A stretch of DNA of 29,362 nt. It comes from a virus. Its lineage: Duplodnaviria; Heunggongvirae; Uroviricota; Caudoviricetes. The notes below the pieces were generated by a model. The model was not told the DNA's origin, did no database searches, and saw only the letters and a program-made list of their open reading frames with translations. Position 1 is the first letter of the stretch. Each line of letters opens with the position of its first letter. The stretch lies in the IMG/VR virus record IMGVR_UViG_3300028734_000016; one strand, written 5' to 3'. A program made the translations under genes and the position numbers. Below, one piece after another: positions 343 through 28,880 of this stretch.

Positions 343-599
343 TAGTATAGTTGTTCTTCGATTAACATTCTCTTTTTAAATTCTGAATCAACTTGATCAT
401 AAAGTTGATTTACCATATCTGCACACCATTCAAAATCTTTTATAAGTTTATCTGTGTCATCTATATAATATAAATTATCAACTTTATCTTTTAAATAGTC
501 GATATCATCTTCATTTCCTAATTGTGAAAAATAATTATATTGTTGTATTATTTTAAGATAACCCAACATTTTATGTATATCATTTATTAATTTGCTCAT
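342..599 (-). CDS. hypothetical protein
   Basis: 85 aa ORF; ATGA overlap with the upstream gene at 596-599. Confidence 0.75.
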   Translation of the reverse strand: MSKLINDIHKMLGYLKIIQQYNYFSQLGNEDDIDYLKDKVDNLYYIDDTDKLIKDFEWCADMVNQLYDQVDSEFKKRMLIEEQLY

Positions 600-937
600 A
601 TGTTAAATTTTTTAGTATCTTTATTCTTTAATAAATACTCAAAATATTCTATTTCATCTTTTTTCATATATCTATCTATTAAGCCTTCTTCAGCATCGAA
701 TTTACCATCCAATATTTTAACTTTATATGGGTAAAGATTTAATGTGTTAATATAATTATCATGTTTTTTATTTGAATCTGTTTCTTCAGGTTCGTTTATG
801 AATCCGTTTTTATCTATTTTAAGTATTTGTCCTAAGCAATCATCATAAGTAAAATCTGGCTCCATATCTAAATGAACATAATCTCCTACTTTATATTTAG
901 GCTTTAGTTGGCTTTCAAATAATCTTAAGTGCTTCAT
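596..937 (-). CDS. tagged small protein (MKHLRLFE...TKKFNI), KOW/SH3-like KYKVGDYV motif
   Basis: 113 aa; shared terminal motifs; ATGA-coupled at both ends. Confidence 0.85.
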   Translation of the reverse strand: MKHLRLFESQLKPKYKVGDYVHLDMEPDFTYDDCLGQILKIDKNGFINEPEETDSNKKHDNYINTLNLYPYKVKILDGKFDAEEGLIDRYMKKDEIEYFEYLLKNKDTKKFNI

Positions 938-1281
938 ATGTTAAATTTGTTTGTATTTTTAATTGCTTCATATTCTATTATCTCATCATCTGTTGCTAAT
1001 CTTTTTATTGTATTATTTTTATTCCAAAAAAATACAGAATTTTTTATTTTATCTTTTCCAACATTTTTATCAGAAAAAAAATGTTTTATTTTATCTGGAA
1101 TATTAACATATTGAATAATCATACTTTTATCATCAATAAACATTATTTTTCCTATCGAATTATTCACAAAATCCTTCAACTTTGTTAATGTGTTAGATTT
1201 TGTATCATAGTTAATTGATACATAATCACCTACTTTATATTCAGTGGTTAATTCATTTTCAAAATTTTTTAAATATTTCAT
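934..1281 (-). CDS. tagged small protein (MKYLKNFE...TNKFNI), EYKVGDYV motif
   Basis: 115 aa; same terminal motifs as its neighbour. Confidence 0.85.
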   Translation of the reverse strand: MKYLKNFENELTTEYKVGDYVSINYDTKSNTLTKLKDFVNNSIGKIMFIDDKSMIIQYVNIPDKIKHFFSDKNVGKDKIKNSVFFWNKNNTIKRLATDDEIIEYEAIKNTNKFNI

Positions 1282-1284
1282 ATA

Positions 1285-2187
1285 TTAAATTTTTCTATTG
1301 AATACATATAGGTCAAATATATTTTTACCGTCTACAATTTTATTGTTACTTAAATCAGAACCTAAAAATGTTTTAATGCATCTATAATTACCTATTAATT
1401 TTTTACCATCGTATACTTTAATTTGTCTATTAATTGTACCCATAGCACCTACTAATACAAGATAATTATTACCAAACATACTCTTCATTACAGAAAATTT
1501 CATAGACTTTGTACTTGAATCTCTCAAAAATCTATTAGCATCATAATTATTTTTATTGATAAGCAAGTTCTTTGATGGAGTTTTTAAATCTATCTGACTA
1601 TTAGAGTTGGTTATTTCTATGCTCACTACTCCTCCCGTTGGTGTGGAGATAGTCGTTTCCTCTTCTGACTGTATCTGTCCACCTTTCAATAAAGTGTTCT
1701 GATTTCTTCTTATTTCATTAAAATCAGCTTTGGCTAATATCTTCTCTGTCATAATTCTATCATTTTGCATATAATTTTTGGGTGGAAGCCTAAAAAAATT
1801 ACCAGTAAATGTCATTGACTTTATGTTATCAGTTTTAAATAATCTCCAAACTTTTTTTGTTTCAGCTTTTTGTGATACAGACCATCCTTCTAAGTGCCAG
1901 CCTCTTACAAGCATATTCTTTGTATTCTTATTAACTCCAAGTACCATAGGCTGAATTGTTCTTTCTCTACCACCTTTCCAGCGATCCTCATCTCCATTAT
2001 AATTCAGAAGAATAACCAAGCCATATTTAATAGCTTTTTTCATTAATTCCACATCAAATTTAACAGGTTTGTTGATAGGAAATTTTGGTATAATATTTGG
2101 ATCAATCTGTTGAGCCTCATTAATTTTAGTACCAAATATTTTTATATCTTTATTTTTAAATTTGTATTCTTTACCTTCTTCAAACAT
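1285..2187 (-). CDS. WYL-like domain protein
   Basis: RERTIQPMVLG...LVRGWHL...WRLFKTDNIKSMTFTGNFF fits the WYL pattern R-x-(V/I)-x-P...R-x-F-x-x-D-x-I; no N-terminal wHTH seen. Confidence 0.6.
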   Translation of the reverse strand: MFEEGKEYKFKNKDIKIFGTKINEAQQIDPNIIPKFPINKPVKFDVELMKKAIKYGLVILLNYNGDEDRWKGGRERTIQPMVLGVNKNTKNMLVRGWHLEGWSVSQKAETKKVWRLFKTDNIKSMTFTGNFFRLPPKNYMQNDRIMTEKILAKADFNEIRRNQNTLLKGGQIQSEEETTISTPTGGVVSIEITNSNSQIDLKTPSKNLLINKNNYDANRFLRDSSTKSMKFSVMKSMFGNNYLVLVGAMGTINRQIKVYDGKKLIGNYRCIKTFLGSDLSNNKIVDGKNIFDLYVFNRKI

Positions 2188-3073
2188 GATTTTTTTTACC
2201 TTTTTTTATATTTATAAGTCTTTTAGTTATACATAGATTATTGATATTACCTATTTTTTCTATAGAAATGTTATTATCAAATCCATATTTAATTGATATT
2301 TTGTGATCTAAACTAGGATAATTATCATCAAAAGATTTTAAATTGAAATTATCTTTAATATATTCATTATCATAATAATCATAACCATTCCAATTATTAT
2401 AAAGTTCTTTTTTATATTTATATGTTTCATTTCTAACTTTTTTTCTATATTCAATAATACTATTATCATTTATCTTATATTTACCATCACAATATGTACA
2501 ATTTTGTTTATGATTATTATGATTTGATGGAGATTGAAAAAAGTGCTTTCCACACATATTACAAATTATTTCTACTTTAATTTTATTAGTTACATAATTT
2601 ACCAGAGTATAATTATATTTATTACCATGAATATCTTTTGCTTTTTGTATGAATTTTGTTCTTTTTTCTTCTAATTCAATCTTTTTATTATTTGATTTTA
2701 TTATATTTTTACTTTCTTCTAATGCTTCTCTTTTTATTTGATTTCTCTTCTTATTTTCTTCTATAAAATTTGTATCTAAAAATATACATTTGATATTATT
2801 TTTTTCTAAATATGTTTTCTCAGATTTTACATGACAACATTTATTACAAAAATATTCATTATATGTTTCTAAACTTTTTAAGTAATTTCTATATTGCATT
2901 TTTCTTAATTCACCACATTTATCACATTTTACAAAAATTTCAATTCCACTATGCTTAGGTAAATCTTTAATATAAACATTCATTTTATTGTTTATTATTT
3001 CATATCCTAAATTAATATAATGTGCTTTCGTTGTATTTGTTACATTTATTGTTATTTTATCTTTTGTTATCAT
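2180..3073 (-). CDS. putative HNH homing endonuclease with Zn-ribbon modules
   Basis: CxxC pairs (CDKC, CNKC, CNMC, CTYC); KAKDIHGNKYNY...IIC module typical of phage endonucleases; C-terminal SLDHKIS...NNLCITKRLINIKKG HNH-like core. Confidence 0.7.
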   Translation of the reverse strand: MITKDKITINVTNTTKAHYINLGYEIINNKMNVYIKDLPKHSGIEIFVKCDKCGELRKMQYRNYLKSLETYNEYFCNKCCHVKSEKTYLEKNNIKCIFLDTNFIEENKKRNQIKREALEESKNIIKSNNKKIELEEKRTKFIQKAKDIHGNKYNYTLVNYVTNKIKVEIICNMCGKHFFQSPSNHNNHKQNCTYCDGKYKINDNSIIEYRKKVRNETYKYKKELYNNWNGYDYYDNEYIKDNFNLKSFDDNYPSLDHKISIKYGFDNNISIEKIGNINNLCITKRLINIKKGKKNHV

Positions 3074-3100
3074 ATTCTCTTTTTTATACTATTTTCTTCA

Positions 3101-3133
3101 TTTATAAATAGTTGATAATCAATTATTTATAAA
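3101..3133. repeat. 33-bp near-perfect palindrome upstream of the HNH gene
   Basis: TTTATAAATAGTTGAT-A-ATCAATTATTTATAAA: 16-bp arms with one G/T mismatch. Confidence 0.75.
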
Positions 3134-3219
3134 AAACATGCAAGATCATGATATATATATACTATATAATATATATTTTCCGCCTTAAATGCTTGAAACT
3201 TATAATAGTTATATATTAA

Positions 3220-3933
3220 TTATTTTCTTTGATTATATTGTTTTTTGATTATTTGTGCCAAAAATATTGCATCTATTTCATCATCTATTGGCTTAGGTAC
3301 TTTTTTTATTTTGGATATTCTTTCCATATTTTCCACACACCAATCCTTTAGTTCTAATTTTGAATCGCTTTTAATTAGTGCGTAAAGCATATCCCATTTA
3401 TCAAAGTCTTTAGCATTTTTACCTTCATCATTTTCATTATGAATAATTTCTTTGATTACCTTTTTACCTTTAGTTTCAATTCTGGGTTTGTATGCCATTT
3501 TACATGCTTCCATTTTAAGAGTTATTGGTGAAAATATTTGTATATCCCCGTATTTATTTATTCTATGTAATAATTTATACTTGAGTAATGTTGTGAATTC
3601 AATTAAATCAAATATTGGTCCTTTTGAATTATAGGAAAATCCTTCAATTCCTATTCTTATACTATCTAATATTCCTACATTATCAAATATATCGTTAATT
3701 ATTAAATCTGTAACTTCATCAAAATTTTTCAATTTTAATATTTCAGATTTACTATAATCTTCCTCATCTAAATATGAATATTTAATGTGTCTATAATTAA
3801 TAAATGAGTTTGTGTCTTTAACCCAAGTGTTGTTTTCTTTTTGAGTAGAATAACTAAATAGTTTAGTGATTCCATTCTTTTCAATACATAGAGCAGTTGA
3901 AATTTTTGATACATCTAATCCAATAAATATCAT
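3220..3933 (-). CDS. RuvC-like Holliday junction resolvase
   Basis: MIFIGLDVSKISTALC (catalytic D in beta1), IGIEGFSY (E), SPITLK, and C-terminal DDEIDAIFLA (D/D). Start moved to ATG 3933 because RuvC begins at the first beta strand. Confidence 0.8.
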   Translation of the reverse strand: MIFIGLDVSKISTALCIEKNGITKLFSYSTQKENNTWVKDTNSFINYRHIKYSYLDEEDYSKSEILKLKNFDEVTDLIINDIFDNVGILDSIRIGIEGFSYNSKGPIFDLIEFTTLLKYKLLHRINKYGDIQIFSPITLKMEACKMAYKPRIETKGKKVIKEIIHNENDEGKNAKDFDKWDMLYALIKSDSKLELKDWCVENMERISKIKKVPKPIDDEIDAIFLAQIIKKQYNQRK

Positions 3934-3985
3934 AAACTGTTTTGTTTTTTTTTTATATATAAATAAAAACAAGTTCTTAAAATAG

Positions 3986-4237
3986 ATGTTAAAAGGAATA
4001 ATTGATGATAAGATAGATAGTTTTGATGGATTTCACTTAGTTTATGCTAAAAAATGTGGAAGTCCAAAAAATAAATTTTTCGAAAAAAGAATTGATGTGA
4101 TTGAATTTTTCTCTCACAACTTAAATAATATTGATTTTTTATCAATAAATGATGTTATTATAGATATAAATAAATTAGTTGAAAATAGTAAACAGCTAGG
4201 TCGATATTTAAAATTAATGAAGATATATGAAATATGA
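3986..4237 (+). CDS. hypothetical protein ending GRYLKLMKIYEI
   Basis: 83 aa ORF; RxxKLxxI-type C-terminal motif. Confidence 0.7.
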   Translation: MLKGIIDDKIDSFDGFHLVYAKKCGSPKNKFFEKRIDVIEFFSHNLNNIDFLSINDVIIDINKLVENSKQLGRYLKLMKIYEI

Positions 4238-4598
4238 TGGAGTAGTGTTAAAAATAGAAGATAATCTATTTTTATTTGTTCTTAATCCAGAAACAAAAAA
4301 TTTAACAGATGGTGTAAACATATCTGCTCACGAGTGTTATGAAAATTTAAAACACACACAATTGGTTGTAGTTAACACAATTTTCAAAGATGGTACAGAA
4401 GAAATAGATAAAATAGATTTAGAAGAATTTATACATGGTGATAAATACGGAAAATATGATACTTTTATTTTAATTAGTGATGTTATTACATATACAATAC
4501 CTAATTTATTAGATATGATTAAAAAAGGAGAATTGAATATGGTAGGTAAAACTTGTATAGAAGACTCCAAAAAAAATGAAGATGATATTAATGAATGA
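4227..4598 (+). CDS. hypothetical protein
   Basis: 123 aa acidic ORF overlapping both neighbours. Confidence 0.7.
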   Translation: MKYDGVVLKIEDNLFLFVLNPETKNLTDGVNISAHECYENLKHTQLVVVNTIFKDGTEEIDKIDLEEFIHGDKYGKYDTFILISDVITYTIPNLLDMIKKGELNMVGKTCIEDSKKNEDDINE

Positions 4599-4893
4599 TA
4601 CTTTTTCACTAAAAAATAGTTTAGAAAAGCTTAAAACCAAAAAATATGATATAAGTATTGATAATACTATTGATAGCTTATTAATTAAATTTGATGAAGA
4701 ACAACTTAGAATGTTATCAAAAAGACAAGGACTGTTGATTGATAACAAACTTATTAGATTATTTTTCGTTGAAAATGTTGGATTTAGATGTTACAATGAA
4801 AAAGATGATATTTATGGTAAATTTTCAATTTGTATTAACATTGAAAGATTTATGAATAACTTATATTTAGAATATATTTCTAATCATATTTAG
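4576..4893 (+). CDS. hypothetical protein
   Basis: 105 aa ORF; start could be 4576, 4582 or 4591; ends in TAG and overlaps the convergent gene by 14 nt. Confidence 0.65.
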   Translation: MKMILMNDTFSLKNSLEKLKTKKYDISIDNTIDSLLIKFDEEQLRMLSKRQGLLIDNKLIRLFFVENVGFRCYNEKDDIYGKFSICINIERFMNNLYLEYISNHI

Positions 4894-5185: not shown

Positions 5186-5198
5186 GATGTCATTTATT

Positions 5199-9452: not shown

Positions 9453-9522
9453 AAAAGTTGTTTTTCTTATATATATAAAAAAACTATTTCTTATATGTAA
9501 AAAATAATATATAAGATATATT

Positions 9523-9876
9523 ATGATTATAGAATTTAAAATGTATGAGAATTTTTTATCTGATGAATATTTAAAAAATGTTACAGATAGAAATATTGAA
9601 AAAATGTATATTGACGGCGAAATATATATTTTATTGTATCATGGTACGAATAAAGAAAATTCGAAGAAAATAATTAGAACAGGTAAATTTAAAAATGGTA
9701 CTTGGTTCTCTCCTGATTTTAATATTTCTAGAAGATATAGTTTAATGACAGGATGTAAAACTCCTATAATTTTCAATATGTATATAAAATTAGATTCGTT
9801 GTATATTAGTGGAGATTACTTTATTGCAAAACATGATTTACATAATGATAAACATGGACAGTCAATTTATGAATAA
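9523..9876 (+). CDS. ADP-ribosyltransferase-fold protein (PARP/HYE-like)
   Basis: LLYHGT...IIRTG...GTWFSPD...SRRYS matches the first two ART core motifs; a third catalytic residue is not identifiable. Confidence 0.6.
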   Translation: MIIEFKMYENFLSDEYLKNVTDRNIEKMYIDGEIYILLYHGTNKENSKKIIRTGKFKNGTWFSPDFNISRRYSLMTGCKTPIIFNMYIKLDSLYISGDYFIAKHDLHNDKHGQSIYE

Positions 9877-9892: not shown

Positions 9893-9991
9893 ATGAAATA
9901 TTTAAAAATGTATGAAGGTAAACAATTGGGTAGTTTGTATCACATATTTGATTTGAGTGAAATGAATATAATATTAAAAAAATATAATTAA
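9893..9991 (+). CDS. 32-aa micro-ORF MKYLKMYEGKQLGSLYHIFDLSEMNIILKKYN (below ORF-track cutoff)
   Basis: Manually translated; carries the N-terminal tag and a KKYN end; could be a truncated gene. Confidence 0.5.
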   Translation: MKYLKMYEGKQLGSLYHIFDLSEMNIILKKYN

Positions 9992-10033
9992 TATTAATTA
10001 TATTTTAAAATAATTAAAAAAAAATAAAAAAAA

Positions 10034-10822
10034 ATGGAAAATGAAAAATGGTCTCAACAGCCAGAAATAACAATTTTAGATGGTAACACTAGACTTTGCT
10101 CAATTGGAGATTTTGGTACAACACCAATTAATAATCTGATTAGTTTGGATTCATTATTTAATTCTGGATTCGATGTTAATGGCTCAATACAGGGTCAACT
10201 AAATACTTTGAAAAATAGTAAATTAAGTAAAAATTTCAACAGTGACAATTATGTTGGAACAACTCATTTAGATGTTGATAATATTGAAATATATTTGGCA
10301 AATAGAACTGGTATGTTTGATGTACATTCAACAATACCATTTAGTGGAGAAACTAATTTTATATTAACAGAGATATGGTTGGATACTGCTGGTTTGTATT
10401 ATCAGAAATTAAAATCAACTACAGGAAAAGAATATGAAAGATTTTTTGGTCTAGATTATGAAATAACTACACCTTGGACTAATATTTCTCCTAAATATAA
10501 GGTTTATACTGCATTATTTACTCAAGGTAGTACTTACGCTCCTACTGTTAATATTTTAGAAAATACAATTGGAGATATTGTTTGGGCTAGAACATCTCTT
10601 GGACAATATACTGGAACACTATCAAATGCTTTTACTCTAAACAAAACAGTTTGTCCACAAGATAGTACTAGATGTCATAGTCAAGGTGATTTGATGTATA
10701 ATTTTAATTTATATTTAGTTAATGTTAATCAAATAGTTATTACTATATTAGATGATACTTTATCATTCGCTGAGAATGATTTTTTATCTAATAAATTGAT
10801 TGAAATTAGAGTTTATGTTTAA
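10034..10822 (+). CDS. putative tail fibre / receptor-binding protein
   Basis: YYQKLKSTTGKEYERF...W knob-like segment and a C-terminal YKVYTALFTQ...APTVNILENTIG.IVWAR...GQY module that I recall from phage fibre proteins (not searched). Confidence 0.5.
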   Translation: MENEKWSQQPEITILDGNTRLCSIGDFGTTPINNLISLDSLFNSGFDVNGSIQGQLNTLKNSKLSKNFNSDNYVGTTHLDVDNIEIYLANRTGMFDVHSTIPFSGETNFILTEIWLDTAGLYYQKLKSTTGKEYERFFGLDYEITTPWTNISPKYKVYTALFTQGSTYAPTVNILENTIGDIVWARTSLGQYTGTLSNAFTLNKTVCPQDSTRCHSQGDLMYNFNLYLVNVNQIVITILDDTLSFAENDFLSNKLIEIRVYV

Positions 10823-11167: not shown

Positions 11168-11199
11168 AAGAAAGTTCAGATTATTCTGAACTTTCTTTT
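11166..11199. terminator. bidirectional terminator
   Basis: AAAAGAAAGTTCAGA-TTAT-TCTGAACTTTCTTTT, 15-bp stem at a convergent junction. Confidence 0.8.
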
Positions 11200-11513
11200 T
11201 TTAGCTTTTTTAGTTTTGTTCTTCTTACTTCCTTTTGAGATATCTTTAGCCAATCTTCCTTTAAAGTGTATAATTTTCCTTTATAGTAATATTGGTTTTT
11301 GTCATCATTATCATAATCAATCGCTGGACCATTTAATCTGTGATATTGATTATTTTTTTTATACTCTACTCTATCTTTGAAATGTATAATAGAATTTTTA
11401 TTGGTGACATTTAACCATTCATTTATTTTTACTGTGTCTTTATAAAAATTTATTAATTTATCTCTTTTTTCTGTTCCTTCTTTTAAGGAGTTTATTTCAT
11501 CAAATTCTGTCAT
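11181..11513 (-). CDS. HRLxGPA-motif protein with RRTKLKKL C-terminal motif
   Basis: 110 aa; YHRLNGPAIDY...QYYYKG motif, common in giant phage and virus hypotheticals. Confidence 0.75.
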   Translation of the reverse strand: MTEFDEINSLKEGTEKRDKLINFYKDTVKINEWLNVTNKNSIIHFKDRVEYKKNNQYHRLNGPAIDYDNDDKNQYYYKGKLYTLKEDWLKISQKEVRRTKLKKLKKESSE

Positions 11514-11748
11514 TTATTTTTAATAATTTTTGTTTTCTTGTTTCTGATACATCTACTTTTATATAATCTAAATTGATGAAATTTTTATCTGATATTGTTC
11601 CATCGTAAAATATAATTGTAATTGAATCTTTAAGGCGCGCTATATCTCCTTCAATACTAATTACTTCTCTTTTAAATTTTTGACATTTCCAAAATTTGTA
11701 AAAAGTTGCATCTTGAGTTACAATATCTCCTTTGTTAATATTTTTCAT
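11500..11748 (-). CDS. hypothetical protein ending RKQKLLKINDRI
   Basis: 82 aa; INKGDIV KOW-like start. Confidence 0.7.
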   Translation of the reverse strand: MKNINKGDIVTQDATFYKFWKCQKFKREVISIEGDIARLKDSITIIFYDGTISDKNFINLDYIKVDVSETRKQKLLKINDRI

Positions 11749-11822
11749 ATGATGTATTTTTATTAGATTGTAAATATATAATTTATTTTTAATATATACA
11801 ACAAAAGAAATAAAGTTTATAG

Positions 11823-14607: not shown

Positions 14608-14613
14608 GAATAA

Positions 14614-14641
14614 AAAACCAAAACTTAATTGTTTTGGTTTT
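14614..14641. terminator. bidirectional terminator
   Basis: AAAACCAAAAC-TTAATT-GTTTTGGTTTT between convergent genes. Confidence 0.8.
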
Positions 14642-14644
14642 ATT

Positions 14645-14929
14645 TTAATTTCTCCAATTCAATCTAATTAAATCTATCATTCTGGATATATCTGTGAATT
14701 CATAATCTACATTCAAATGATTAAACCAATCTTCTATCATATTTGGTGATAGTTTATCAAGTCTTTTGAATATTCCTATAGCACCTTTTCTGCCATCGTA
14801 TCCTTCATATTCATGACAAAACCAATAATTGAATTTTTTAACATTTGATGTATCATCAAGTATGAATTTTTTCTTTGTCGTTGGTTTGGATTCTTCTGTT
14901 TTCTTCTTGAATATACTAAAAATTTTCAT
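14645..14929 (-). CDS. hypothetical protein
   Basis: 94 aa ORF preceded by a Bacteroidota-type promoter. Confidence 0.7.
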   Translation of the reverse strand: MKIFSIFKKKTEESKPTTKKKFILDDTSNVKKFNYWFCHEYEGYDGRKGAIGIFKRLDKLSPNMIEDWFNHLNVDYEFTDISRMIDLIRLNWRN

Positions 14930-18403: not shown

Positions 18404-18459
18404 CACAATATAAGCCATATGACTTATATTGTGTTAATATAAGTCATATGGCTTATATT
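18401..18459. repeat. nested inverted repeat
   Basis: 24-bp unit 18407-18430 and its exact reverse complement 18436-18459; each unit is a one-mismatch palindrome, and 18401-18436 is a 36-bp one-mismatch palindrome. Confidence 0.9.
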
Positions 18460-18464
18460 AAATA

Positions 18465-19761: not shown

Positions 19762-19830
19762 TATATTATATTTTTATTTTATAATATTATATGAATTTTT
19801 ATTATAATTGTTTAGAAAAAATGTTATTGT

Positions 19831-20379
19831 TTAATTATTTTTACTTTTATATATTTTACAATGTGTTCTATTGATAATTATTCCATCAATAAATTCAAAA
19901 TAATCTTCTGTGATGATTGGGTATTTACTTGGTGATATTAAAATGAAATATTTACAGTTTAATGATAAATTATACATCAACTGATTAAAATATGAGTTGG
20001 TGCATAGATGAAGTGCATACGAACAGATAATTGTTTGTTTGTGTAAATTTAATCCATGTATTGCTATATCCTCGAATGAAAGTTTTAAACATTCATTTCC
20101 TGTTTTTTTTGTATAAATATTATTAAAATATGGATCTGTGCCAATTGCATCAATTATTCCATTTTTAGATAAATATTTGGTTATTTCTCCATTGCCACAT
20201 GACAAATCAATAAAGTTTGTTATATTAATTTTTTTTAAACACCAATTCAATACTAATTTGATATTATCTTCATGCGGATTAATATATGTTTCTTTATTAT
20301 CAGTATAATATTTTTTAATACCAATTTTTGTGTATTCATCTCTAATTCCATGTTCATGTATAGATTTGATGTGTTTCAT
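19831..20379 (-). CDS. small class I SAM-dependent methyltransferase-like protein
   Basis: FIDLSCGNGEIT motif I, IGTDPY, ICSYALHL; substrate unknown. Confidence 0.75.
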   Translation of the reverse strand: MKHIKSIHEHGIRDEYTKIGIKKYYTDNKETYINPHEDNIKLVLNWCLKKINITNFIDLSCGNGEITKYLSKNGIIDAIGTDPYFNNIYTKKTGNECLKLSFEDIAIHGLNLHKQTIICSYALHLCTNSYFNQLMYNLSLNCKYFILISPSKYPIITEDYFEFIDGIIINRTHCKIYKSKNN

Positions 20380-20475: not shown

Positions 20476-21363
20476 ATGATAGATAAAAAAATATGGACTA
20501 TTGAAAAATGCACTGAAGAAGCATTAAAATATAAAACTAAAAAAGAATTTAGGATAAAATGTAAACAAGTATATGGAATCTCAATTAGAAATAATTGGAT
20601 ATTTGATGTTTGTGCTCATATGAGAAAAAATAAATCATATATCTGGACAAAAGATTTTTGTCAAAAAGAATCTTTGAAGTTTAATAGTAGAAATGAATTT
20701 AGGAAAAATTCAAGTTATATTTATGGTAAATCATTAATATATGGATGGATAGATGAAATATGCTCACATATGAAGTGTATGGGTGATTTATATAAAAGAT
20801 GTATTTATGTTTATGAATTTTCTGATAACTATGCATATATTGGATTGACTTGTGATTTAGATAGACGATTTAATGAACATTTAAGAAAAGGCTCAGTTTA
20901 TGAACATATACAAAAAAATAATAATTATAAATTTAAAAAATTAAGTGAATATATTGATGTTTATTTATCAAAAATATTAGAAGAGGATTATGTTAATAAA
21001 TATAAAAATAATGATTGGAAAATTTTAAATAAGTGTAAAACAGGAGGAACAGGTGGTAAAAAATATTGGACAAAAGAATTATGTCAAATAGAAGCAAATA
21101 AATTTAATACAAAAGTTGAATTTAAAAAACAATCAGCATCAGCATATACAATTTCATTAAAAAATAAATGGTTAAAAGAAATATGTTTGCATATGACACC
21201 ATTAGTAAAACCAAATGGTTATTGGACAAAAGAATTATGTCAAATAGAAGCATTAAAATATAAGACTAGATCTGAATTTTATATGAAATCTATTAGTGCG
21301 TATTCTAAATCATATAAAAGTGGTTGGTTAAACGAGATTTGTTTTCATATGAATAAAAAATAA
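20476..21363 (+). CDS. GIY-YIG homing-type endonuclease with four 43-aa repeats
   Basis: RCIYVYEF...AYIGLT...RRFNEH...E...LN core flanked by WTxxxCxxExxK(Y/F)...W...C-x-HM repeats. Confidence 0.85.
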   Translation: MIDKKIWTIEKCTEEALKYKTKKEFRIKCKQVYGISIRNNWIFDVCAHMRKNKSYIWTKDFCQKESLKFNSRNEFRKNSSYIYGKSLIYGWIDEICSHMKCMGDLYKRCIYVYEFSDNYAYIGLTCDLDRRFNEHLRKGSVYEHIQKNNNYKFKKLSEYIDVYLSKILEEDYVNKYKNNDWKILNKCKTGGTGGKKYWTKELCQIEANKFNTKVEFKKQSASAYTISLKNKWLKEICLHMTPLVKPNGYWTKELCQIEALKYKTRSEFYMKSISAYSKSYKSGWLNEICFHMNKK

Positions 21364-21469
21364 AAATTGATATTAATTTACGGTGATATAAAAACTTGAT
21401 GCGTATTTTATCACTTTAATAATTTTTAACACCATATTTCTGATATTTTGATCTTATGCTATCCATATT

Positions 21470-21766
21470 TTATAAGTTAAATTTTTTTGTTTTTTTAATT
21501 AAAGCATAACCATTTTCATGATAATCTTGTTCAAAGTCTTGAGTTAATTCCAAAAAATCATTAAAATTTTCTAAATAATCTATTTGTTTATCTGTCAAAT
21601 CTTCTGATCCGTATTCATCCGCTGAAAAATGAGATAAGCCTTCAGCGTCTGTCCATAATTTATACAATTCAGATAGACTATCAAACATTGAGTTATCATA
21701 TCCTAATGATTTATTGTATGATATTTCATCTGATTCATTTAGTTGGTTAAATTTATTTATTTTCAT
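21470..21766 (-). CDS. tagged small acidic protein (MKINKFNQLNE...TKKFNL)
   Basis: 98 aa; both terminal motifs. Confidence 0.8.
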   Translation of the reverse strand: MKINKFNQLNESDEISYNKSLGYDNSMFDSLSELYKLWTDAEGLSHFSADEYGSEDLTDKQIDYLENFNDFLELTQDFEQDYHENGYALIKKTKKFNL

Positions 21767-22145
21767 CTTTTTCGTACATTTGAATTTTTTTGATATTGTT
21801 TTCTTCTATGTCTTGTAAATTTACTTCATAACTTGGTTCTTCTTCGTCATCATAATTGTCGTAATATCTTGCTGTGAAATTATCTATTATCTCATTTTCT
21901 TCCTTCATGAAACCATCAAATGATTCTACTTTTCTTAGTTTATTTTTCTTGTTTTTCTTATGTCTTTTCATATTTATAGCAGGTTTAGAATATGTGGCAA
22001 GAGTTTGACTAATATCACCAGAGCCAGTGGTACCTTGAGTTCCAGGAATACTTCCTGGTTGAGCAGCTACAATAGCGCCCATACCTCCTGTGTTACCGAG
22101 AGTGGCACACGCATCTTCTTTCATAAATTCTTCAAATTTTTTCAT
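21753..22145 (-). CDS. N-tagged Gly-rich protein (MKKFEEFMKE...)
   Basis: 130 aa; closest match to the T4 CTS MKTYQEFIAE. Confidence 0.8.
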   Translation of the reverse strand: MKKFEEFMKEDACATLGNTGGMGAIVAAQPGSIPGTQGTTGSGDISQTLATYSKPAINMKRHKKNKKNKLRKVESFDGFMKEENEIIDNFTARYYDNYDDEEEPSYEVNLQDIEENNIKKIQMYEKDENK

Positions 22146-22147
22146 AT

Positions 22148-22780
22148 TTATATATTGTATTTTTTTGTTGATATTTTAATTTCACATTCTTCTTTTGAAC
22201 CTATAAATTCAATTTTGTTATGTCTTTTTATTATAGGTAAATATATATTTTCTTCATCATTTAAAAAATTGCAAGATTTAAATTGCTCTTTCAAATTGTC
22301 TGGTATATTTTCATATTTTATCAAATAAGAAATTCCAACTGCTGATTTTCTTGATAAAACTATTTCTCCGGTATTATTCTGAACAAATGTATCTAATTCT
22401 TTTCTTATTCCTTTGGTTGAAGCGAATGAATACTCTTCAGAATCTTTCATTATAATATATTTTCCAATATTTTTATCATTGTTTACTATTCCCCAATTCC
22501 AACCAGAATCATCTATTTTTTCTGATATGAATCCTTCATTTCTGAATTTCTTGAACATTCTAAGTCTTCTTCTTTTCTCTTTTAATTCTTTTTTTGAATG
22601 CTTCATACTTTTATATGTGGTGAATGATGGTTCTCCAACAGCAGTGAATACAATGCCACTGGCTCCATTATTACCACCAGATTGCATATATCCTCTACCA
22701 AACGGAATCGAACCTACTCCTGCCTTTCCAGATGCATTACCTGATGATATTCCTTCTTCATATGTTTTTAAGTATTTCAT
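22148..22780 (-). CDS. tagged protein (MKYLKTYEE...TKKYNI)
   Basis: 210 aa; Gly-rich then basic N-terminal half. Confidence 0.85.
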   Translation of the reverse strand: MKYLKTYEEGISSGNASGKAGVGSIPFGRGYMQSGGNNGASGIVFTAVGEPSFTTYKSMKHSKKELKEKRRRLRMFKKFRNEGFISEKIDDSGWNWGIVNNDKNIGKYIIMKDSEEYSFASTKGIRKELDTFVQNNTGEIVLSRKSAVGISYLIKYENIPDNLKEQFKSCNFLNDEENIYLPIIKRHNKIEFIGSKEECEIKISTKKYNI

Positions 22781-23145
22781 AAGTTGAATTTTTGTGTCTT
22801 TTTAATTAGATTCCATTTTTTAATATCATCTTCGGTTATTTCAACTTTTCCCATATATTTGTTACCGTTTTCTATTGCAGTATCTTTTATGAAATCAGTA
22901 ACATGACTCCATGTTACTGATGTGCCTAAGTATGATAAATTTGTTTTAATAATATAAATATAAACTAATCCACTATTTTTTATGTAGGAGTTATTCATTC
23001 CATATATTTTTTCCTTTAACTCTTCATCAAAACCAAGTTTATTTAATGAGATTTCAAAATATGGTTCATCTGTATTTATTTCCCAAAATTTACCTTCTGC
23101 ATTAACATGTTCATCTATGTTCTCATATTTCTTAATATATTTCAT
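22777..23145 (-). CDS. tagged small protein (MKYIKKYE...TQKFNL)
   Basis: 122 aa; ATGA-coupled at both ends. Confidence 0.85.
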   Translation of the reverse strand: MKYIKKYENIDEHVNAEGKFWEINTDEPYFEISLNKLGFDEELKEKIYGMNNSYIKNSGLVYIYIIKTNLSYLGTSVTWSHVTDFIKDTAIENGNKYMGKVEITEDDIKKWNLIKKTQKFNL

Positions 23146-23465
23146 ATGTTGAATTTTTTTGATGATATTTCATAATCTGGAACCAATTCTAATTCATCTT
23201 CATATATCCATTGTCTTGAAAATGTGTCTATTGTTATGAAGCAAGTATATTTTTTAGTTTCAATACAATAATATTCTATTTTGTAGATATATTCATTGTT
23301 ATTTGTATTTATTTTAACATGATCTCCAATTTTAAATTTAGTATCTTTTGGTAATTTTTCATTATCACTAATCAAAAATGGTGAATCTTTTGATATTCCA
23401 TGATTTTTTAATTCATCTATTGATATTTTATTTATTTTTTCTTCAAATGATTTGATGTGTTTCAT
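23142..23465 (-). CDS. tagged small protein (MKHIKSFEE...SKKFNI), KFKIGDHV motif
   Basis: 107 aa. Confidence 0.85.
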   Translation of the reverse strand: MKHIKSFEEKINKISIDELKNHGISKDSPFLISDNEKLPKDTKFKIGDHVKINTNNNEYIYKIEYYCIETKKYTCFITIDTFSRQWIYEDELELVPDYEISSKKFNI

Positions 23466-23548
23466 ATGACTATTATATATTAATTTTTAATTATACTATT
23501 TTCTATGATGTGTTTTTTATATATACTTTAAAATAATAATAATTATAA

Positions 23549-24103: not shown

Positions 24104-24552
24104 CAATAGTATCAAACACACAAATGTTGAATATATTTAGAAAGATTCCAATATTTAAAATGGATTTGGGTGTTAATTTTATTGATTTGAAGCAAGAAAC
24201 TGTTAGAATTAAAGATCCATTCATGAATAAATATTTGGAAATGACAGGTACACAAGTTATGACATATGGTTCAATAGGAAAATTAATATTTTATCAAGAT
24301 TTTACTTTATCATCAAAAGAATTTTATATATTTAATGATGATACTATTTATTCTATGATATATACTGATGATGATTCTAGAATGAGTCCAGAAAATTATT
24401 TAGCTTCTATAGTAAAAGAGATTAATGAAAAAGAAGGTATTAAAGATAATTCTGATAAAACTATTAAAAAAATAGATCCAAATATTAAATTACCTACAGA
24501 TCAATATATTGAAGAAATGATTAAGAAAAGAAAATTAAACGGAAATGGGTAA
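24100..24552 (+). CDS. hypothetical protein
   Basis: 150 aa; ATGA-coupled to the upstream gene. Confidence 0.8.
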   Translation: MTIVSNTQMLNIFRKIPIFKMDLGVNFIDLKQETVRIKDPFMNKYLEMTGTQVMTYGSIGKLIFYQDFTLSSKEFYIFNDDTIYSMIYTDDDSRMSPENYLASIVKEINEKEGIKDNSDKTIKKIDPNIKLPTDQYIEEMIKKRKLNGNG

Positions 24553-25777
24553 AAAAAGTAAAAATGATAATGTAATTGATAAAATTATTGTTAATAATCA
24601 TGGACTATTAGGATTAACACCGAATAAAGAAACTGTATATACTCAACCAGTTTCAAAAATAACCAGAATAAAAAATTTGGGTGATGTTACAGGTTATTCT
24701 GAGATTGTCACAGGAAGAACCAATACTCCAAATAAATCCATGTATAAATTTGGTGTAAATGATGATGTGACTGGAAAATCTGAATTGATTGTAGAAAGGA
24801 ATAAAACACCAAATAAAGAAATTGTATTTAATAATGTATCAGTGATTAAAACACCAGGTAATAAATCACTATTTAATAATATAGATATAATTAAAACTCC
24901 AAAAAATGAAATATTATACAATAATAATAAAATAGATAATTCATTAACTAATAGTGATTTGTATAAAAATATAGATTCAGTCAACAAATTAACAAATGAA
25001 GATTTATATAAAAATATAGGTTCAGATAATAAATTAATAAATGCTGATTTATATAAAAATATAGGTTCAGATAACAAATTAGTGAATGAAGATTTGTATA
25101 AAAATATAGGTTCAGATAACAAATTAGTGAATGAAGATTTGTATAAAAATATAGATTCTACCAACAATTTAACTGATGCAGATTTGTATAAAAATATAGA
25201 TTCTACCAACAATTTAACTAATGAAGATTTATATAAAAATATAGATTCTACCAACAAATTAACTAATGCAGATTTATATAAAAATATAGATTCTACCAAC
25301 AAATTAACTAATGCAGATTTATATAAAAATACAATTTTAGATAATAAATTAACTAATGAAGATTTATATAAAAATATAGGTTCAGATAACAAATTAATCA
25401 ATGAACAATTATTTGACGGTAAAGTTTTAGTGAGCAACAAATTAAACAATGAAAAATTATTTGATGATAATTTTATAGTAAATAATAAATTAACCAATGA
25501 AGATTTATATAAAAATGCAGTTTCAGATAACAAATTAAATAATGAACAATTGTTTGATGATAATGTTATAGTAAATAATAAATTAAATAATGAAAAATTA
25601 TTTGAAGATAATGTTATAGTAAATAATAAATTAGTGATGGAAAAATTATATAATGAGTCTAAAAAAGTTGATAATTCATTGAAAAATGATGTGATATATG
25701 ATAATAAAGATGACTCCACGTCAACTAAAAAATTGAAAAACGTTGAGACTTTGTATATTAATAGTAACATTGATTAA
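24545..25777 (+). CDS. tandem-repeat protein
   Basis: 410 aa; N-terminal TP-rich units followed by 15/16-aa repeats. Confidence 0.85.
   Translation: MGKKSKNDNVIDKIIVNNHGLLGLTPNKETVYTQPVSKITRIKNLGDVTGYSEIVTGRTNTPNKSMYKFGVNDDVTGKSELIVERNKTPNKEIVFNNVSVIKTPGNKSLFNNIDIIKTPKNEILYNNNKIDNSLTNSDLYKNIDSVNKLTNEDLYKNIGSDNKLINADLYKNIGSDNKLVNEDLYKNIGSDNKLVNEDLYKNIDSTNNLTDADLYKNIDSTNNLTNEDLYKNIDSTNKLTNADLYKNIDSTNKLTNADLYKNTILDNKLTNEDLYKNIGSDNKLINEQLFDGKVLVSNKLNNEKLFDDNFIVNNKLTNEDLYKNAVSDNKLNNEQLFDDNVIVNNKLNNEKLFEDNVIVNNKLVMEKLYNESKKVDNSLKNDVIYDNKDDSTSTKKLKNVETLYINSNID
24938..25672 (+). repeat. coding tandem repeat: 11 x 45-bp and 5 x 48-bp units
   Basis: NKLTNEDLYKNIxSx (15 aa) and NKLNNExLFDDNxIVN (16 aa) units, counted manually. 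Confidence 0.9.
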
Positions 25778-25801
25778 AAATTCTTAAAATATAAAAACAT
25801 T

Positions 25802-25833
25802 TTTGATTATCACATGATTAAGTATTATCTTTG
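25802..25833 (+). promoter_or_regulatory. Bacteroidota sigma70-type promoter
   Basis: TTTG (25802-25805)-N20-TATCTTTG (25826-25833), upstream of ATG 25863. Confidence 0.75.
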
Positions 25834-25862
25834 TATATAATTAATAATTAAAAAATATTATC

Positions 25863-26663
25863 ATGAGCATTCTAAATTATAATAGTTTTTCGGTTATGAA
25901 TCATAAAAATGAGCTAATTGAAAAGATCATTACTATAATAGAACCAACATTGGAGGATTTACTGATTAAATACGAAGAAAGTTTTTTTGAAGAAACTGGT
26001 AGGTATTTCACAGAATTTCAAAAAGAAAATACTCTACTATATTTAATATTTGATTTGGTTAAATCAATTGAAAAATATACTAAACCCACAGATAAACTTG
26101 TTAATTTGAGAACTAGATATTCCAACAAAGGAAATTTGGAGATTATTTCAGAAATAAAAAGAGATGGTATTCTTCATGATTTCTCTACTGAAGTTATAAT
26201 TGCAGGTGGTTATAATATTCAAAAAGCTCATTATAGATATATCACAAAAACTACTTTACCTCAAACTAACAATTCTGAACTGACTTCTCTTTATTCAGAA
26301 AAAATTAAGAAATTAAATAAAATTGAAAAACTTCAAAAGGATATAGAATATGACAAAACAATAATTTCTTCTTGTGAAAAAGAAATTTCAGAATCAATTA
26401 AATTGACTGATGAAGAAATATTTATTTTATTATCTAAAGAAGAATATGGTAGGCATTTATTGACTACTTGGGAAACATTGAGTTCTGATTCTTATGCTAA
26501 ACAGAACAACACAAAAGAAAGTTGGGAAAAAGGAAATAAAGAATATGTTGATAGTAGAATTGATAATTGGAAAAAAAGAAATATAAATTGGAAACAAGAT
26601 AGAATAAAGTCTGCTGAAATTTCAATCAAAAAATCTCAGGATAAAATAAATAAATTGAAATGA
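25863..26663 (+). CDS. hypothetical protein with coiled-coil C-terminal half
   Basis: 266 aa ORF. Confidence 0.8.
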   Translation: MSILNYNSFSVMNHKNELIEKIITIIEPTLEDLLIKYEESFFEETGRYFTEFQKENTLLYLIFDLVKSIEKYTKPTDKLVNLRTRYSNKGNLEIISEIKRDGILHDFSTEVIIAGGYNIQKAHYRYITKTTLPQTNNSELTSLYSEKIKKLNKIEKLQKDIEYDKTIISSCEKEISESIKLTDEEIFILLSKEEYGRHLLTTWETLSSDSYAKQNNTKESWEKGNKEYVDSRIDNWKKRNINWKQDRIKSAEISIKKSQDKINKLK

Positions 26664-27136
26664 TAGATAGTTATAATAGGTATAATTTAAATAATAATAT
26701 AGAAAAATTAGCAAAAACTATACTTAGAACTTTTTTACATATAATGAAAGGTGAGCATATTAATTGTGAATCAAAATGGTTTTCAGATGATAAATATCAG
26801 TTGATTTTTTATAAAGACAATTATACATTTAGTAAAATTTTTTACATTACATTTGAGATTAAAAATTGTGAATCTGAATTAGTTGAATATGATTCATATT
26901 CTATTTATGATCCATATGTTACTATAGAAGTTAAAAGTGGTAATAGTATAACAGATATGATAAGATGTGAAAAATTCTTATTGTTTATTAAAAATATACT
27001 TTTACCATATGATATAACTGGACAATATTATACTTTTTGTGGTTCAGTTGATATTGATGATATCCCATATTTAATAACAAAATTATCAATCAAGGAGTAT
27101 GATTTTTCAAATAATACAAAAAAATTCAATATTTGA
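26660..27136 (+). CDS. C-tagged protein (...TKKFNI)
   Basis: 158 aa; ATGA-coupled. Confidence 0.8.
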   Translation: MIDSYNRYNLNNNIEKLAKTILRTFLHIMKGEHINCESKWFSDDKYQLIFYKDNYTFSKIFYITFEIKNCESELVEYDSYSIYDPYVTIEVKSGNSITDMIRCEKFLLFIKNILLPYDITGQYYTFCGSVDIDDIPYLITKLSIKEYDFSNNTKKFNI

Positions 27137-27139
27137 TTT

Positions 27140-27616
27140 ATGATTCGAAAATATGAAGAACATGTAGTCTACACTGAAGAATTTTTATCTCACCTTGATA
27201 CTCACTATAAAGTAATTAAGTTAGGTGATAAAATTGTTGAATTTTTGAAGAGTGCTGATAGTAACTTGTTTTATTCGACTAATTCTCCTCCTGATTATGA
27301 ATATATGATAACTATTAATAGATTTAGTTATCCTACTTCAGAATTTGATGTTATTTTTTATATTCTTTTTACTATAACCAACAATACTGATATTAAAATA
27401 GATTTTCATTGGGGTAAATCAGTAAAAACATATCATAAAGATAAATGGAACACTGCTCTATTATTTTTAAGACATCTTATGTCATCAAAAGAAGATTATG
27501 GCGAGTATTATAGTTTTTCAACTGTTATTAAACAGAATGATATAAACAAAATTATTTCTGATGTGAATGTGGAGCATTTTAATTTTTATAAAGATACTTT
27601 AAAATTTAATTTATAA
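27140..27616 (+). CDS. tagged protein (MIRKYEE...LKFNL)
   Basis: 158 aa; possibly a distant paralogue of the preceding same-length gene. Confidence 0.8.
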   Translation: MIRKYEEHVVYTEEFLSHLDTHYKVIKLGDKIVEFLKSADSNLFYSTNSPPDYEYMITINRFSYPTSEFDVIFYILFTITNNTDIKIDFHWGKSVKTYHKDKWNTALLFLRHLMSSKEDYGEYYSFSTVIKQNDINKIISDVNVEHFNFYKDTLKFNL

Positions 27617-27652
27617 AAAAATACAATATCTAATTAGATATTGTATTTTTTT
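27615..27652. terminator. 38-bp perfect palindrome, likely bidirectional terminator
   Basis: AAAAAAATACAATATCTAATTAGATATTGTATTTTTTT at a convergent junction. Confidence 0.8.
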
Positions 27653-27969
27653 GTATTTTTTCTAACCTCAAATTCTTCAATTTCTGCTGGTGTGAGTTTT
27701 CTTTTAATGTCTTTATCTAATACACATCTTTTTCCACTTATTATTGCAATTTGACCAATATTTGTTGGCGATTTTACTCCATCCCAAGCAACATATTGAT
27801 ATTCATCAAGATAGTCTATATACTCGATTTCTTCAATTATAAATTTGCCTTTTAGGTATGTTTTTTTCGTTAATTGTTTAGAAACAAGAATATAATCTCC
27901 TATGTTATAAGTTGGAGCTTTATCATTTGTGTAATTATAATATTCTTCAAATTTATAAACTTTTTTCAT
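27634..27969 (-). CDS. tagged small protein (MKKVYKFEE...TKKYNI), YNIGDYI motif
   Basis: 111 aa. Confidence 0.85.
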   Translation of the reverse strand: MKKVYKFEEYYNYTNDKAPTYNIGDYILVSKQLTKKTYLKGKFIIEEIEYIDYLDEYQYVAWDGVKSPTNIGQIAIISGKRCVLDKDIKRKLTPAEIEEFEVRKNTKKYNI

Positions 27970-27971
27970 GA

Positions 27972-28622
27972 TTAGAATGATACTTTTTTTAGAATGTCAT
28001 TGTGATGAGTGAATGCTAATTGTGATTTTGATGCCCTATTTAATAACATCCACTTTCCACTTTTTGCATCATCATCAAATGATAGTTCAGATGTGTTTTT
28101 TATGTGAATGACAAATGGAAATGTAAAAAAGTTTATTTCCCTAGGATCATTAGTTCTAATCATAGGTAAAGGTTCAATGTTTTTTATATCATCACTCTTT
28201 GCCTTTGTTTCTTCATTTAGTTCTCTGAGAACGGCTTGCTGTGGTGTTTCTCCTGCATCAATAAAGCCTCCTGGTAAAGCCCAACCCCTACCGTCTTGCC
28301 TTTCTATCAGATAAACTCTACCCTCTCTTAAAGCCACTGCATCAACTGCGAAATTTGCAACATATGATATGATATTACCATCAGTCGTTTCAAAATATTT
28401 AGTTATTGGGTGTCCTGAGTTTACAAAGTTTGCAAATTTGTCATCTATCAATGTCAATTTACCTGCTTGTTCTTTTGGTAGAATATATTCTATCCTGTTG
28501 TCTGTCTTATAAATCCAGTTACCTTCTGGATCTTTATTGATTGCTATTATTGTTACCAATTTGCTCAAATCAAAATTTGATAGAGATTCATTCATATTAA
28601 AATTTTTAAAATTTGTTATCAT
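27972..28622 (-). CDS. Nudix hydrolase (ADP-ribose pyrophosphatase-like)
   Basis: AVDAV...LIER...GWALPGGFIDAGETPQQAVLRELNEET Nudix box; C-terminal LAFTH. Confidence 0.9.
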   Translation of the reverse strand: MITNFKNFNMNESLSNFDLSKLVTIIAINKDPEGNWIYKTDNRIEYILPKEQAGKLTLIDDKFANFVNSGHPITKYFETTDGNIISYVANFAVDAVALREGRVYLIERQDGRGWALPGGFIDAGETPQQAVLRELNEETKAKSDDIKNIEPLPMIRTNDPREINFFTFPFVIHIKNTSELSFDDDAKSGKWMLLNRASKSQLAFTHHNDILKKVSF

Positions 28623-28625
28623 TAA

Positions 28626-28880
28626 TTATAATTCTATTTTTTCAAATGTGTGTGTGATTTCTATTTCTTCATCTTCTTGATTCAATATCATATCATATTC
28701 ATTGATAGTTTTATCCATATCGTAGTATTTTATTTCTTTTTCTGAAAATGTTCTAGCATATTCTATGTCCAATACTAACATTTCGCCAATAACATCATCA
28801 ATATAAAAGTAATAATCATCGTATTTATATACGTATTTTTTTAATAATAAATTCTCATTGAATTTATTTAATCTTTTCAT
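28626..28880 (-). CDS. small acidic protein (MKRLNKFNE...)
   Basis: ATG 28880 preferred over 28985 because it gives the family N-tag and lies 21 nt below a TAnnTTTG element. Confidence 0.7.
   Translation of the reverse strand: MKRLNKFNENLLLKKYVYKYDDYYFYIDDVIGEMLVLDIEYARTFSEKEIKYYDMDKTINEYDMILNQEDEEIEITHTFEKIEL

Follow-up and report, generated by a model that had tools for sequence, protein, structure and literature searches.

A window of 29,362 nucleotides from the IMG/VR record IMGVR_UViG_3300028734_000016, a virus of the class Caudoviricetes, was analysed here for short conserved peptides at the ends of its proteins. The window is a piece of the 711,471-bp JGI metagenome contig Ga0311364_10000001, has a GC content of 23-24%, and carries approximately 44 densely packed genes. 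About one quarter of these genes start with a short conserved peptide that resembles the capsid-targeting sequence (CTS) of phage T4, and most of the genes marked in this way also bear a conserved peptide at the C-terminus; the two are referred to below as the N-tag and the C-tag. The N-terminal motif is real, portable, and under selection at the level of the peptide. On balance, we lean towards reading it as a signal of the T4 CTS type, which would address proteins to the core of the prohead and might be cleaved after its conserved glutamate. This reading is supported by a T4-type head module on the same contig, in which both the scaffold and the capsid protein contain matching hydrophobic-x-Glu sites. 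In the literature searched, no publication describing tags of this kind in huge phages was found.

Close relatives of the window occur in IMG/VR as fragments of 94-235 kb with approximately 85% protein identity, two of which were used whole, namely G002 (235 kb, hereafter G2) and G001 (126 kb, hereafter G1); two 20-kb pieces of the window's own contig were used as well. Unless stated otherwise, counts refer to the 669 ORF-called genes pooled from the window, G1, and G2. The system used for comparison is that of T4, where the CTS is MKTYQEFIAE, residues 4 and 7 (Y4 and F7) being required for targeting and residues 8 and 10 for processing, and where the prohead protease gp21 cuts after L/I-x-E, degrading the scaffold at many such sites (PMC9026906; PMC8442874).

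The tight form of the N-tag, MK[YH][LI][KR]x[FYI]x?E, has seven matches in the six-frame translation of the window, all seven at ORF starts. Of the 669 pooled genes, 35 carry it, and only one of 1,829 internal methionines begins a match. A register-free test was based on the core [LIVFMY][KR]x[FY]E; in 43 genes this core begins at residue 4 and in nine at residue 5, while the rate in protein interiors predicts 0.19 core starts per position. At the nucleotide level, a degenerate DNA pattern yielded 10-17 matches per relative contig, and the reversed-pattern control yielded none. Beside class A, defined as MK[YH][LI]Kx[FY]E, two further classes emerged when the N-termini of all C-tagged genes were listed: class B, MKx[YF]xx[FY][IM]xE, found on nine genes with no internal matches, and class C, MI[TIV]xFKx[FY]E, found on 18 genes, 14 of which have a C-terminal ending of the K[FY]N[ILM] type. 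Overall, approximately 8% of the pooled genes carry the N-tag and approximately 12% carry either tag.

The constraint lies on the peptide rather than on A-rich initiation or a DNA element, since synonymous codon usage within the N-tag is that of the genome (G/C-ending codons 23:139 versus 4541:35610, p = 0.26) and the substitutions keep the chemistry of the residues (Y/H, L/I, K/R, and F/Y). A-rich initiation bias, which the preliminary description had named as a possible source of the motif, is therefore not the explanation. The N-tag precedes unrelated domains, including SH3-like barrels, an enzyme of the ADP-ribosyltransferase (ART) fold, a Nudix hydrolase, an NT5C nucleotidase, and ankyrin repeats; the last two are found in the relatives, where the Pfam match to the nucleotidase begins at residue 13 and that to the ankyrin repeats at residue 18. 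An exhaustive search with the SH3-like protein encoded at 934-1281 returned 91 cluster representatives (50% clusters), with the N-tag kept in 80 and the C-tag in 85; in their alignment, mean column identity is 26% and the invariant columns are M1, E8, and N114. The AlphaFold2 model of this protein (predicted local distance difference test score, pLDDT, 84.6) has a confident SH3-like core, for which Foldseek returned weak eL21/MazF-type barrel matches only, and a C-terminal helix spanning residues 98-112, but both ends of the chain (residues 1-10 and the final five) are modelled as coil at a pLDDT of about 51. For the ART, modelled from a shallow alignment (pLDDT 66.6), residues 1-16 fall below 50. 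In these two unrelated models, the tag is thus predicted to be a linear motif outside the fold.

At the opposite end, [FY]N[ILV] followed by a stop closes 70 of the pooled genes; in 118,693 residues, K[FY]N[ILV] stands at a C-terminus 65 times and within a protein 27 times. The logo of the C-tag reads [DNS]-[TAS]-[NK]-K-[FY]-N-[IL], with an acidic amphipathic stretch before it. The preliminary description had proposed that many N-tagged proteins also carry a C-terminal tag, and this coupling is borne out, the C-tag being present on 39 of 52 N-tagged genes (odds ratio 57, p ~1e-32); a "two-ended addressing" scheme would fit such co-occurrence. An out-of-frame KFNI* at 1278-1292 was considered as a frameshifted tag and rejected as a spacer coincidence, the ..VFNRKI end of the upstream gene being conserved in both relatives. 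A different common C-terminal tail, ..RKQKLLKINDRI, was observed on a small SH3-like protein, at 11500-11748 (-) and 11181-11513 (-), which indicates that C-terminal tags of more than one kind are in use in this phage.

A link between the N-tag and the capsid is provided by class B. Residues 1-53 of the class-B protein encoded at 21753-22145 align with residues 32-96 of the phage's own major capsid protein (MCP) at 45% identity (BLASTP, E 4e-10). The alignment runs from the first residue of the small protein and sets MKKFEEFMKE|DACATLGNTGGMGA.. against MAEYAEMHSMNE|NVAYSTLGNMNGMGA.. of the MCP. The corresponding MCP segment, M.EYAEMH.[ML]NE|N, is conserved in 50 distinct MCPs of the clade, its methionine being the exact starting point of the small protein and of the orthologues of that protein. 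Very probably, [ML]NE|N in this segment is the maturation junction of the capsid protein and, to judge from the alignment, the class-B tag is derived from the propeptide junction of the capsid protein or shares ancestry with it. The residue after the tag glutamate is asparagine in 21 of 52 tags (background approximately 10%); asparagine likewise follows glutamate at the MCP junction and, as described below, in the repeats of the scaffold. The likeness of MKKFEEFMKE to the T4 CTS, already remarked upon in the preliminary description, consists of exact matches at positions 1, 2, 6, 7, and 10 and conservative ones at 4 and 8, and is now joined by the homology with the capsid propeptide junction. 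After its capsid-homologous residues, the protein continues with a basic stretch and then an acidic tail, and it is the only tagged protein of the window with a marked basic stretch. The product of 22148-22780 showed no significant similarity to the capsid protein.

The head module was reached through LR756501, a distantly related 735-kb uncultured phage (32% identity across a single structural protein) that encodes a Gp23-family capsid protein with a weak Peptidase_S77 match 3 kb upstream. Pfam searches for head genes in four related fragments gave no match, as those fragments do not include the region. Used as a probe, the MCP of LR756501 returned 68 head-module loci, some of which share samples and GC content with the window's relatives, and the 90% cluster of one such MCP includes a member on the window's own contig. 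The corresponding 20-kb piece (L111) is located approximately 100 kb away from the window and contains genes for a portal of the T4 type, a 781-aa protease protein, and a 610-aa Gp23 capsid protein (on record PF07068). Family scores were taken from L068, a near-identical relative of this module, whose portal reaches 213 bits for Portal_T4 and whose 781-aa protein has an N-terminus scoring 26 bits for Peptidase_S80 (over the cut-off) and 23.8 bits for S77 (just under it); the capsid protein of a 90%-identical relative scores 85.9 bits.

The protease gene, L111:6552-8894, encodes a prohead protease fused to a scaffold-like region, in which residues ~265-440 form 12 tandem 14-residue repeats, YSEY[IL]AE[NH]LDxxI; beyond the repeats lie an acidic linker rich in Pro and Glu and, after it, a conserved C-terminal domain. 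All 36 clade members examined have the repeats. Sites of the form [FYW][ILVM]xE are nine times commoner in the scaffold region than genome-wide and number 10-18 per fusion in 36 of 36 clade fusions, LR756501 included, YIAE[NH] and YLAEN being the commonest forms. These Y[IL]AE repeats agree with the L/I-x-E rule of T4 and are similar to EFIAE, the second half of its CTS, and the fusion protein's own N-terminus, MKPVLIVE|H, recalls the LIE site near the gp21 N-terminus noted in a T4 review. The preliminary description had left the prohead protease to be found and its cleavage motifs to be compared; with the protease located, the scaffold and class B are seen to have sites of the L/I-x-E kind, whereas classes A and C mostly lack them. 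Between portal and protease, at L111:5266-6069 and at the same position in other modules, lies a gene for a conserved acidic protein, M.[IV]DRRI..ILY.., ending in ..DDF.N.I; in T4, this interval is occupied by genes 67/68 of the prohead core. Several endonuclease-like genes that stand alone (DUF7487, DUF723, and Mom-domain) are also present among the portal, protease, and capsid genes of L111 and L068, and these inserted genes differ between close relatives.

Tagged genes cluster in rows, with 28 adjacent pairs versus 5.9 expected, as in the five-gene minus-strand row that runs from 23465 down to 21470 and is headed by 23142-23465 behind a TAATATATAA-type motif. Gene content within such rows varies: G1 has six tagged genes (20787-22780) where the window has two (596-1281), and 23142-23465, in the row compared between the window (21470-23465) and G2 (61242-63185), lacks a G2 orthologue, as does 27634-27969. 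At 9893-10822, where G2 has a 300-aa tagged gene, an unrelated 262-aa gene (10034-10822) has taken its place in the window and only the first 32 codons of the tagged gene are left; an interpretation of 9893-9991 as an "empty cassette" was accordingly rejected in favour of a deletion remnant. Tagged orthologues also diverge more (63-77%) than their neighbours (80-96%). To judge from these comparisons, tagged genes act as cassettes that are gained or lost whole between ~85%-identical relatives, as both tags are encoded at gene ends, which often overlap (ATATGA).

Among upstream elements, the TAATATATAA-type motif is the most frequent, with TATATATA in 33% of upstream gaps of >=40 nt versus 1.5% in the background. 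A box of this type lies approximately 28 nt before many starts, including those of the protease-scaffold gene and of two small genes upstream of it, and sits further upstream of the portal gene. Counted per gene, the motif is associated with 61 of 83 tagged and 201 of 586 untagged genes (p 2e-11); counted per transcription unit, the figures are 28 of 42 and 107 of 228 (p 0.03), a modest excess. Units of this type may be late. A second upstream motif, a Bacteroidota-style TAnnTTTG box, was observed for example before 14645-14929 and 28626-28880, and is ahead of six of the 83 tagged genes. Upstream regions showing the motif classes include 3934-3985, 9480-9522, 11749-11822, and 23466-23548, as well as those of L111.

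If the N-tag is a signal of the T4 CTS type, it would be borne by late-expressed accessory proteins and would attach them, during prohead assembly, to the core formed by the protease-scaffold; the docked proteins would end inside the capsid and be retained in the virion. A Glu-specific prohead protease of the T4/phiKZ type may cut after the conserved glutamate of the tag, and the tagged proteins might, as a further step, be ejected into the host at infection. The C-terminal K[FY]N[IL] would then be a second, linked signal. Several features recall T4. Like the CTS, the N-tag is a position-1 peptide of approximately ten residues on unrelated, fast-evolving accessory proteins, with an MK start, a hydrophobic or aromatic residue at positions 4 and 7, and a conserved glutamate. 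The T4 targeting positions would correspond to L/I at 4 and F/Y at 7 in class A and to Y/F at 4 and F/Y at 7 in class B, and in class C this T4-like pattern recurs one residue further along. At the processing positions mapped in T4, class B has I/M (8) and E (10), and with them an L/I-x-E-type site at residues 8-10 ([IM]-x-E, nine genes). The combination of a Gp20/Gp23 head module with a prohead protease of the Glu-specific type is likewise shared with T4. T4 packages the ADP-ribosyltransferase Alt, and both Alt and gp21 are processed at both termini (PMC9026906). The tagged ART-fold protein of the window, as candidate cargo, parallels packaged Alt, although unlike Alt it has an N-terminal tag only.

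Among other large phages, phiKZ, 201phi2-1, and SPN3US package dozens of proteins that are processed after glutamate by a diverged gp21 homologue (gp175, gp245; MEROPS S80), and the protease described here similarly exceeds the Peptidase_S80 cut-off. Their propeptides are long and varied, with S/A-x-E cleavage (A/S/G-x-E as the SPN3US variant) and, unlike the proteins described here, no common tag of 8-10 residues; T4-like head genes (Gp20 and Gp23) and Y[IL]AE scaffold sites further distinguish the present phage from this group. In T-even phages, the loci for internal proteins are hypervariable, cargo being exchanged there behind a conserved CTS. The tagged genes resemble these loci in their conserved terminus, variable body, and differing gene content between close relatives, and depart from them in forming tandem rows with overlapping stop and start codons and in the conservation of both gene ends.

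A number of observations weigh against prohead targeting. L, I, M, or V is found at P3 of the conserved glutamate in only 22 of 52 tags (42%), and in classes A and C, where the glutamate is residue 8 or 9 and an aromatic residue occupies P2, the T4 L/I-x-E rule is not obeyed. The internal proteins of T4 (IPI-III) are small, highly basic, and DNA-associated, whereas the tagged proteins lack this basic character, with a median pI of 5.9 and 22% of them above pI 8 (versus 40% of untagged proteins). The tag is carried by approximately 8% of genes here and by three or four in T4, in three registers, and most tagged proteins bear a second tag, which the CTS lacks. Extrapolated, this share corresponds to roughly 100-150 tagged proteins per genome, which the capsid of a 711-kb phage could probably hold; to our knowledge, such a number of cargo species is unprecedented and exceeds that of any characterised phage. 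The C-tag is also without precedent in capsid targeting, and we know of no analogue. A C-propeptide like that of T4 Alt was considered for it and is unsupported: K[FY]N[IL] contains no glutamate and [LIVM]xE is not enriched upstream of the C-tag (39% versus 35%), which makes a gp21-type C-propeptide unlikely. LR756501 has the head module in common with the present phage, yet shows no enrichment of the N-tag. A doubly tagged 102-aa gene between portal and protease was considered as a conserved core component and rejected, being present in two of 22 head modules with an upstream ORF and confined to the closest relatives. Finally, the association of the tags with the TAATATATAA-type promoter is weak once gene arrays are treated as single units.

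A more elaborate form of prohead targeting, which we put forward tentatively, is a two-signal system in which a propeptide-derived N-tag loads approximately 100 exchangeable cargos, the C-tag conveys a second instruction, and the junctions between tagged genes serve as recombination points. The cargo would consist of enzymes (ART, Nudix hydrolase, and nucleotidase) together with many small binding domains, the second instruction could be retention, ejection order, or docking to a second partner, and recombining tag-coding junctions would make the injected arsenal modular.

An unlikely alternative is that both tags are stability or turnover signals, such as N- and C-degrons or adaptor-docking peptides, which are read by a ClpXP/Lon-type protease or unfoldase of phage or host and time the lifetime of many small accessory proteins without any capsid addressing. 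Both tags are unstructured termini in the models, which is where degrons sit, the last residue of the C-tag is hydrophobic, as in many C-degrons of the ssrA type, and the tagged proteins are small and acidic to neutral, unlike the internal proteins of T4. Such a role would, however, leave unexplained both the homology of class B with the capsid propeptide junction and the invariant Glu-then-Asn shared with the scaffold and MCP sites, and degrons are rarely so uniform over approximately 100 proteins; no unfoldase gene is present within the window.

Quite improbable, in our view, is an action of the termini mainly at the DNA or mRNA level, whereby the ~45-nt junction, made up of C-tag codons, the ATATGA overlap, and N-tag codons, would be a module for translational coupling and recombination that allows cassettes to be shuffled and expressed in rows, with the peptides as its by-products. 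In its favour, the end of the gene overlaps the following start (ATATGA) in 29 of the 65 C-tagged genes, the last Ile codon of the C-tag is ATA in 86% of cases versus 45% genome-wide (a bias that follows from this overlap), tagged genes cluster, and whole cassettes differ between close relatives, as in the G1 row of six genes described above. Against it, synonymous usage in the N-tag is ordinary, the C-tag is richer, not poorer, in TTC and AAC than the genome as a whole, and at 36 of the 65 C-tags there is no overlap with a start; N-tags are also found on the first genes of rows and on isolated genes (23142-23465 and the ART), the tags are kept in 80-85 of 91 homologues at only ~35% identity, and the substitutions noted above conserve chemistry rather than bases. 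Little credence is given to a mixed inner-body-like or cytoplasmic assembly, independent of prohead-core targeting, in which N- and C-peptides bind each other or a common hub: the strong co-occurrence of the tags, their position as free ends in the monomer model, and the inner body that phiKZ-like phages form from many proteins (PMC9026906) would agree with it, but 41 C-tagged genes lack a tight class-A N-tag (31 by the looser core), 13 N-tagged genes, the ART included, lack a C-tag, the sequences give no hint of complementary pairing, and the capsid propeptide homology is left unexplained.

The tagged genes of the window, together with the look-alikes that were set aside, are listed in the table.

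Table. Genes of the window with tagged, variant, or tag-like termini (coordinates refer to the window; strand in brackets; nt, nucleotide positions of the tag).
Product	Coordinates (strand)	N-terminus	C-terminus	Remarks
SH3-like, 113 aa	596..937 (-)	class A, MKHLRLFE (nt 914-937)	..TKKFNI (nt 599-616)	solid
SH3-like, 115 aa	934..1281 (-)	class A, MKYLKNFE (nt 1258-1281)	..TNKFNI (nt 937-954)	solid
ADP-ribosyltransferase-fold, 117 aa	9523..9876 (+)	class C, MIIEFKMYE (nt 9523-9549)	no C-tag	solid
remnant ORF, 32 aa	9893..9991 (+)	class A, MKYLKMYEGKQLGSLY..		solid; intact 300-aa gene in G2 75724-76626
methyltransferase	19831..20379 (-)	MKHIKSIHE		look-alike, not a tag
98 aa	21470..21766 (-)	degenerate, MKINKFNQLNE	..TKKFNL	plausible variant; PHROG 9962, function unknown
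130 aa	21753..22145 (-)	class B, MKKFEEFMKE	no C-tag	solid; orthologues MKKFEEFIKE, MKKFDEFIKE
210 aa, Gly-rich segment	22148..22780 (-)	class A, MKYLKTYE	..TKKYNI	solid
122 aa	22777..23145 (-)	class A, MKYIKKYE	..TQKFNL	solid
107 aa	23142..23465 (-)	class A, MKHIKSFE	..SKKFNI	solid; no G2 orthologue
acidic protein, 184 aa	23549..24103 (+)	MKKLFEEY		not counted as tagged
158 aa	26660..27136 (+)	untagged, MIDSYNRYNL	..TKKFNI	C-tag only
158-aa paralogue	27140..27616 (+)	degenerate class-C-like, MIRKYEE (G2 orthologue MIIKFEE)	..TLKFNL	plausible variant
SH3-like, 111 aa	27634..27969 (-)	variant, MKKVYKFEE	..TKKYNI	plausible; no G2 orthologue
Nudix hydrolase, 216 aa	27972..28622 (-)	class-C variant, MITNFKNFNMNE	no C-tag	plausible variant; domain from residue 92, Pfam NUDIX 3.6e-17
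84 aa	28626..28880 (-)	"FNE" variant, MKRLNKFNE		plausible; same start taken by gene caller; TAnnTTTG box upstream

The preliminary description had counted about 15 tagged starts in the window; eight of these, including the ART, are solid, five, including the Nudix hydrolase, are plausible variants, and two are not tags. The latter are the methyltransferase start, MKHIKSIHEHG, which aligns with the untagged N-terminus MDSIRSKYQKYG of syntenic orthologues, and MKKLFEEY of the acidic protein, which falls outside classes A, B, and C. As stated there, the tag is absent from the large structural proteins, DnaJ, RuvC, and both endonucleases. On a position-specific scoring matrix, the score of the methyltransferase start was reached by two of 100 N-termini simulated from ordinary ones, and the same number matched that of the variant MKKVYKFEE (27634-27969). 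In the Nudix hydrolase, the first six residues of MITNFKNFNMNE are identical to those of the clear class-C tags MITNFKVFEN and MITNFKIFEK. The start of 596-937 overlaps the stop of the upstream gene (ATATGA), and the gene has orthologues in G1 and G2.

The assignment of 9523-9876 to the ART fold rests on three weak but concordant lines, namely a Pfam match to ART-PolyVal (E 4.9e-4, below its cut-off), atlas neighbours comprising PARP, Arr, Tox-ART, and exotoxin A, and top Foldseek matches to Tpt1/KptA and PARP14/16/10; its homologues keep the class-C tag down to 63% identity. For the small tagged proteins, Pfam and PHROGs contain no family.

Further features of the window were observed apart from the tagged genes. 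A 410-aa protein encoded at 24545-25777 (+) is built for the most part from a 14-residue unit, ..N[EA]DLYKNI[GD]S[DT]NKL[TVI].., repeated in tandem approximately 14 times, and a long shadow ORF (24694-25770) lies on the opposite strand to it. A GH19-type lysozyme/chitinase-like gene at 28972-29361 (+) continues past the end of the window, its full-length product giving a weak Glyco_hydro_19 match. Perfect hairpins are present between convergent genes at 314-341, 14608-14644, and 18404-18464 (e.g. AAAAGTCAGATTTAATCTGACTTTT) and look like bidirectional intrinsic terminators.

If prohead targeting by the N-tag is correct, the largest known phages would deliver approximately 100 ready-made proteins with their DNA, rather than three or four, and views of host takeover and counter-defence by huge phages would change. 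Many of the small unknown genes of huge phages would be partly explained, the tags would allow candidate virion cargo of uncultivated phages to be listed directly from sequence, and phage engineering would gain two natural, portable tags for packaging. The question of capsid addressing is open to testing without culturing the phage. The homology between class B and the capsid junction, for its part, suggests how capsid targeting signals may arise.

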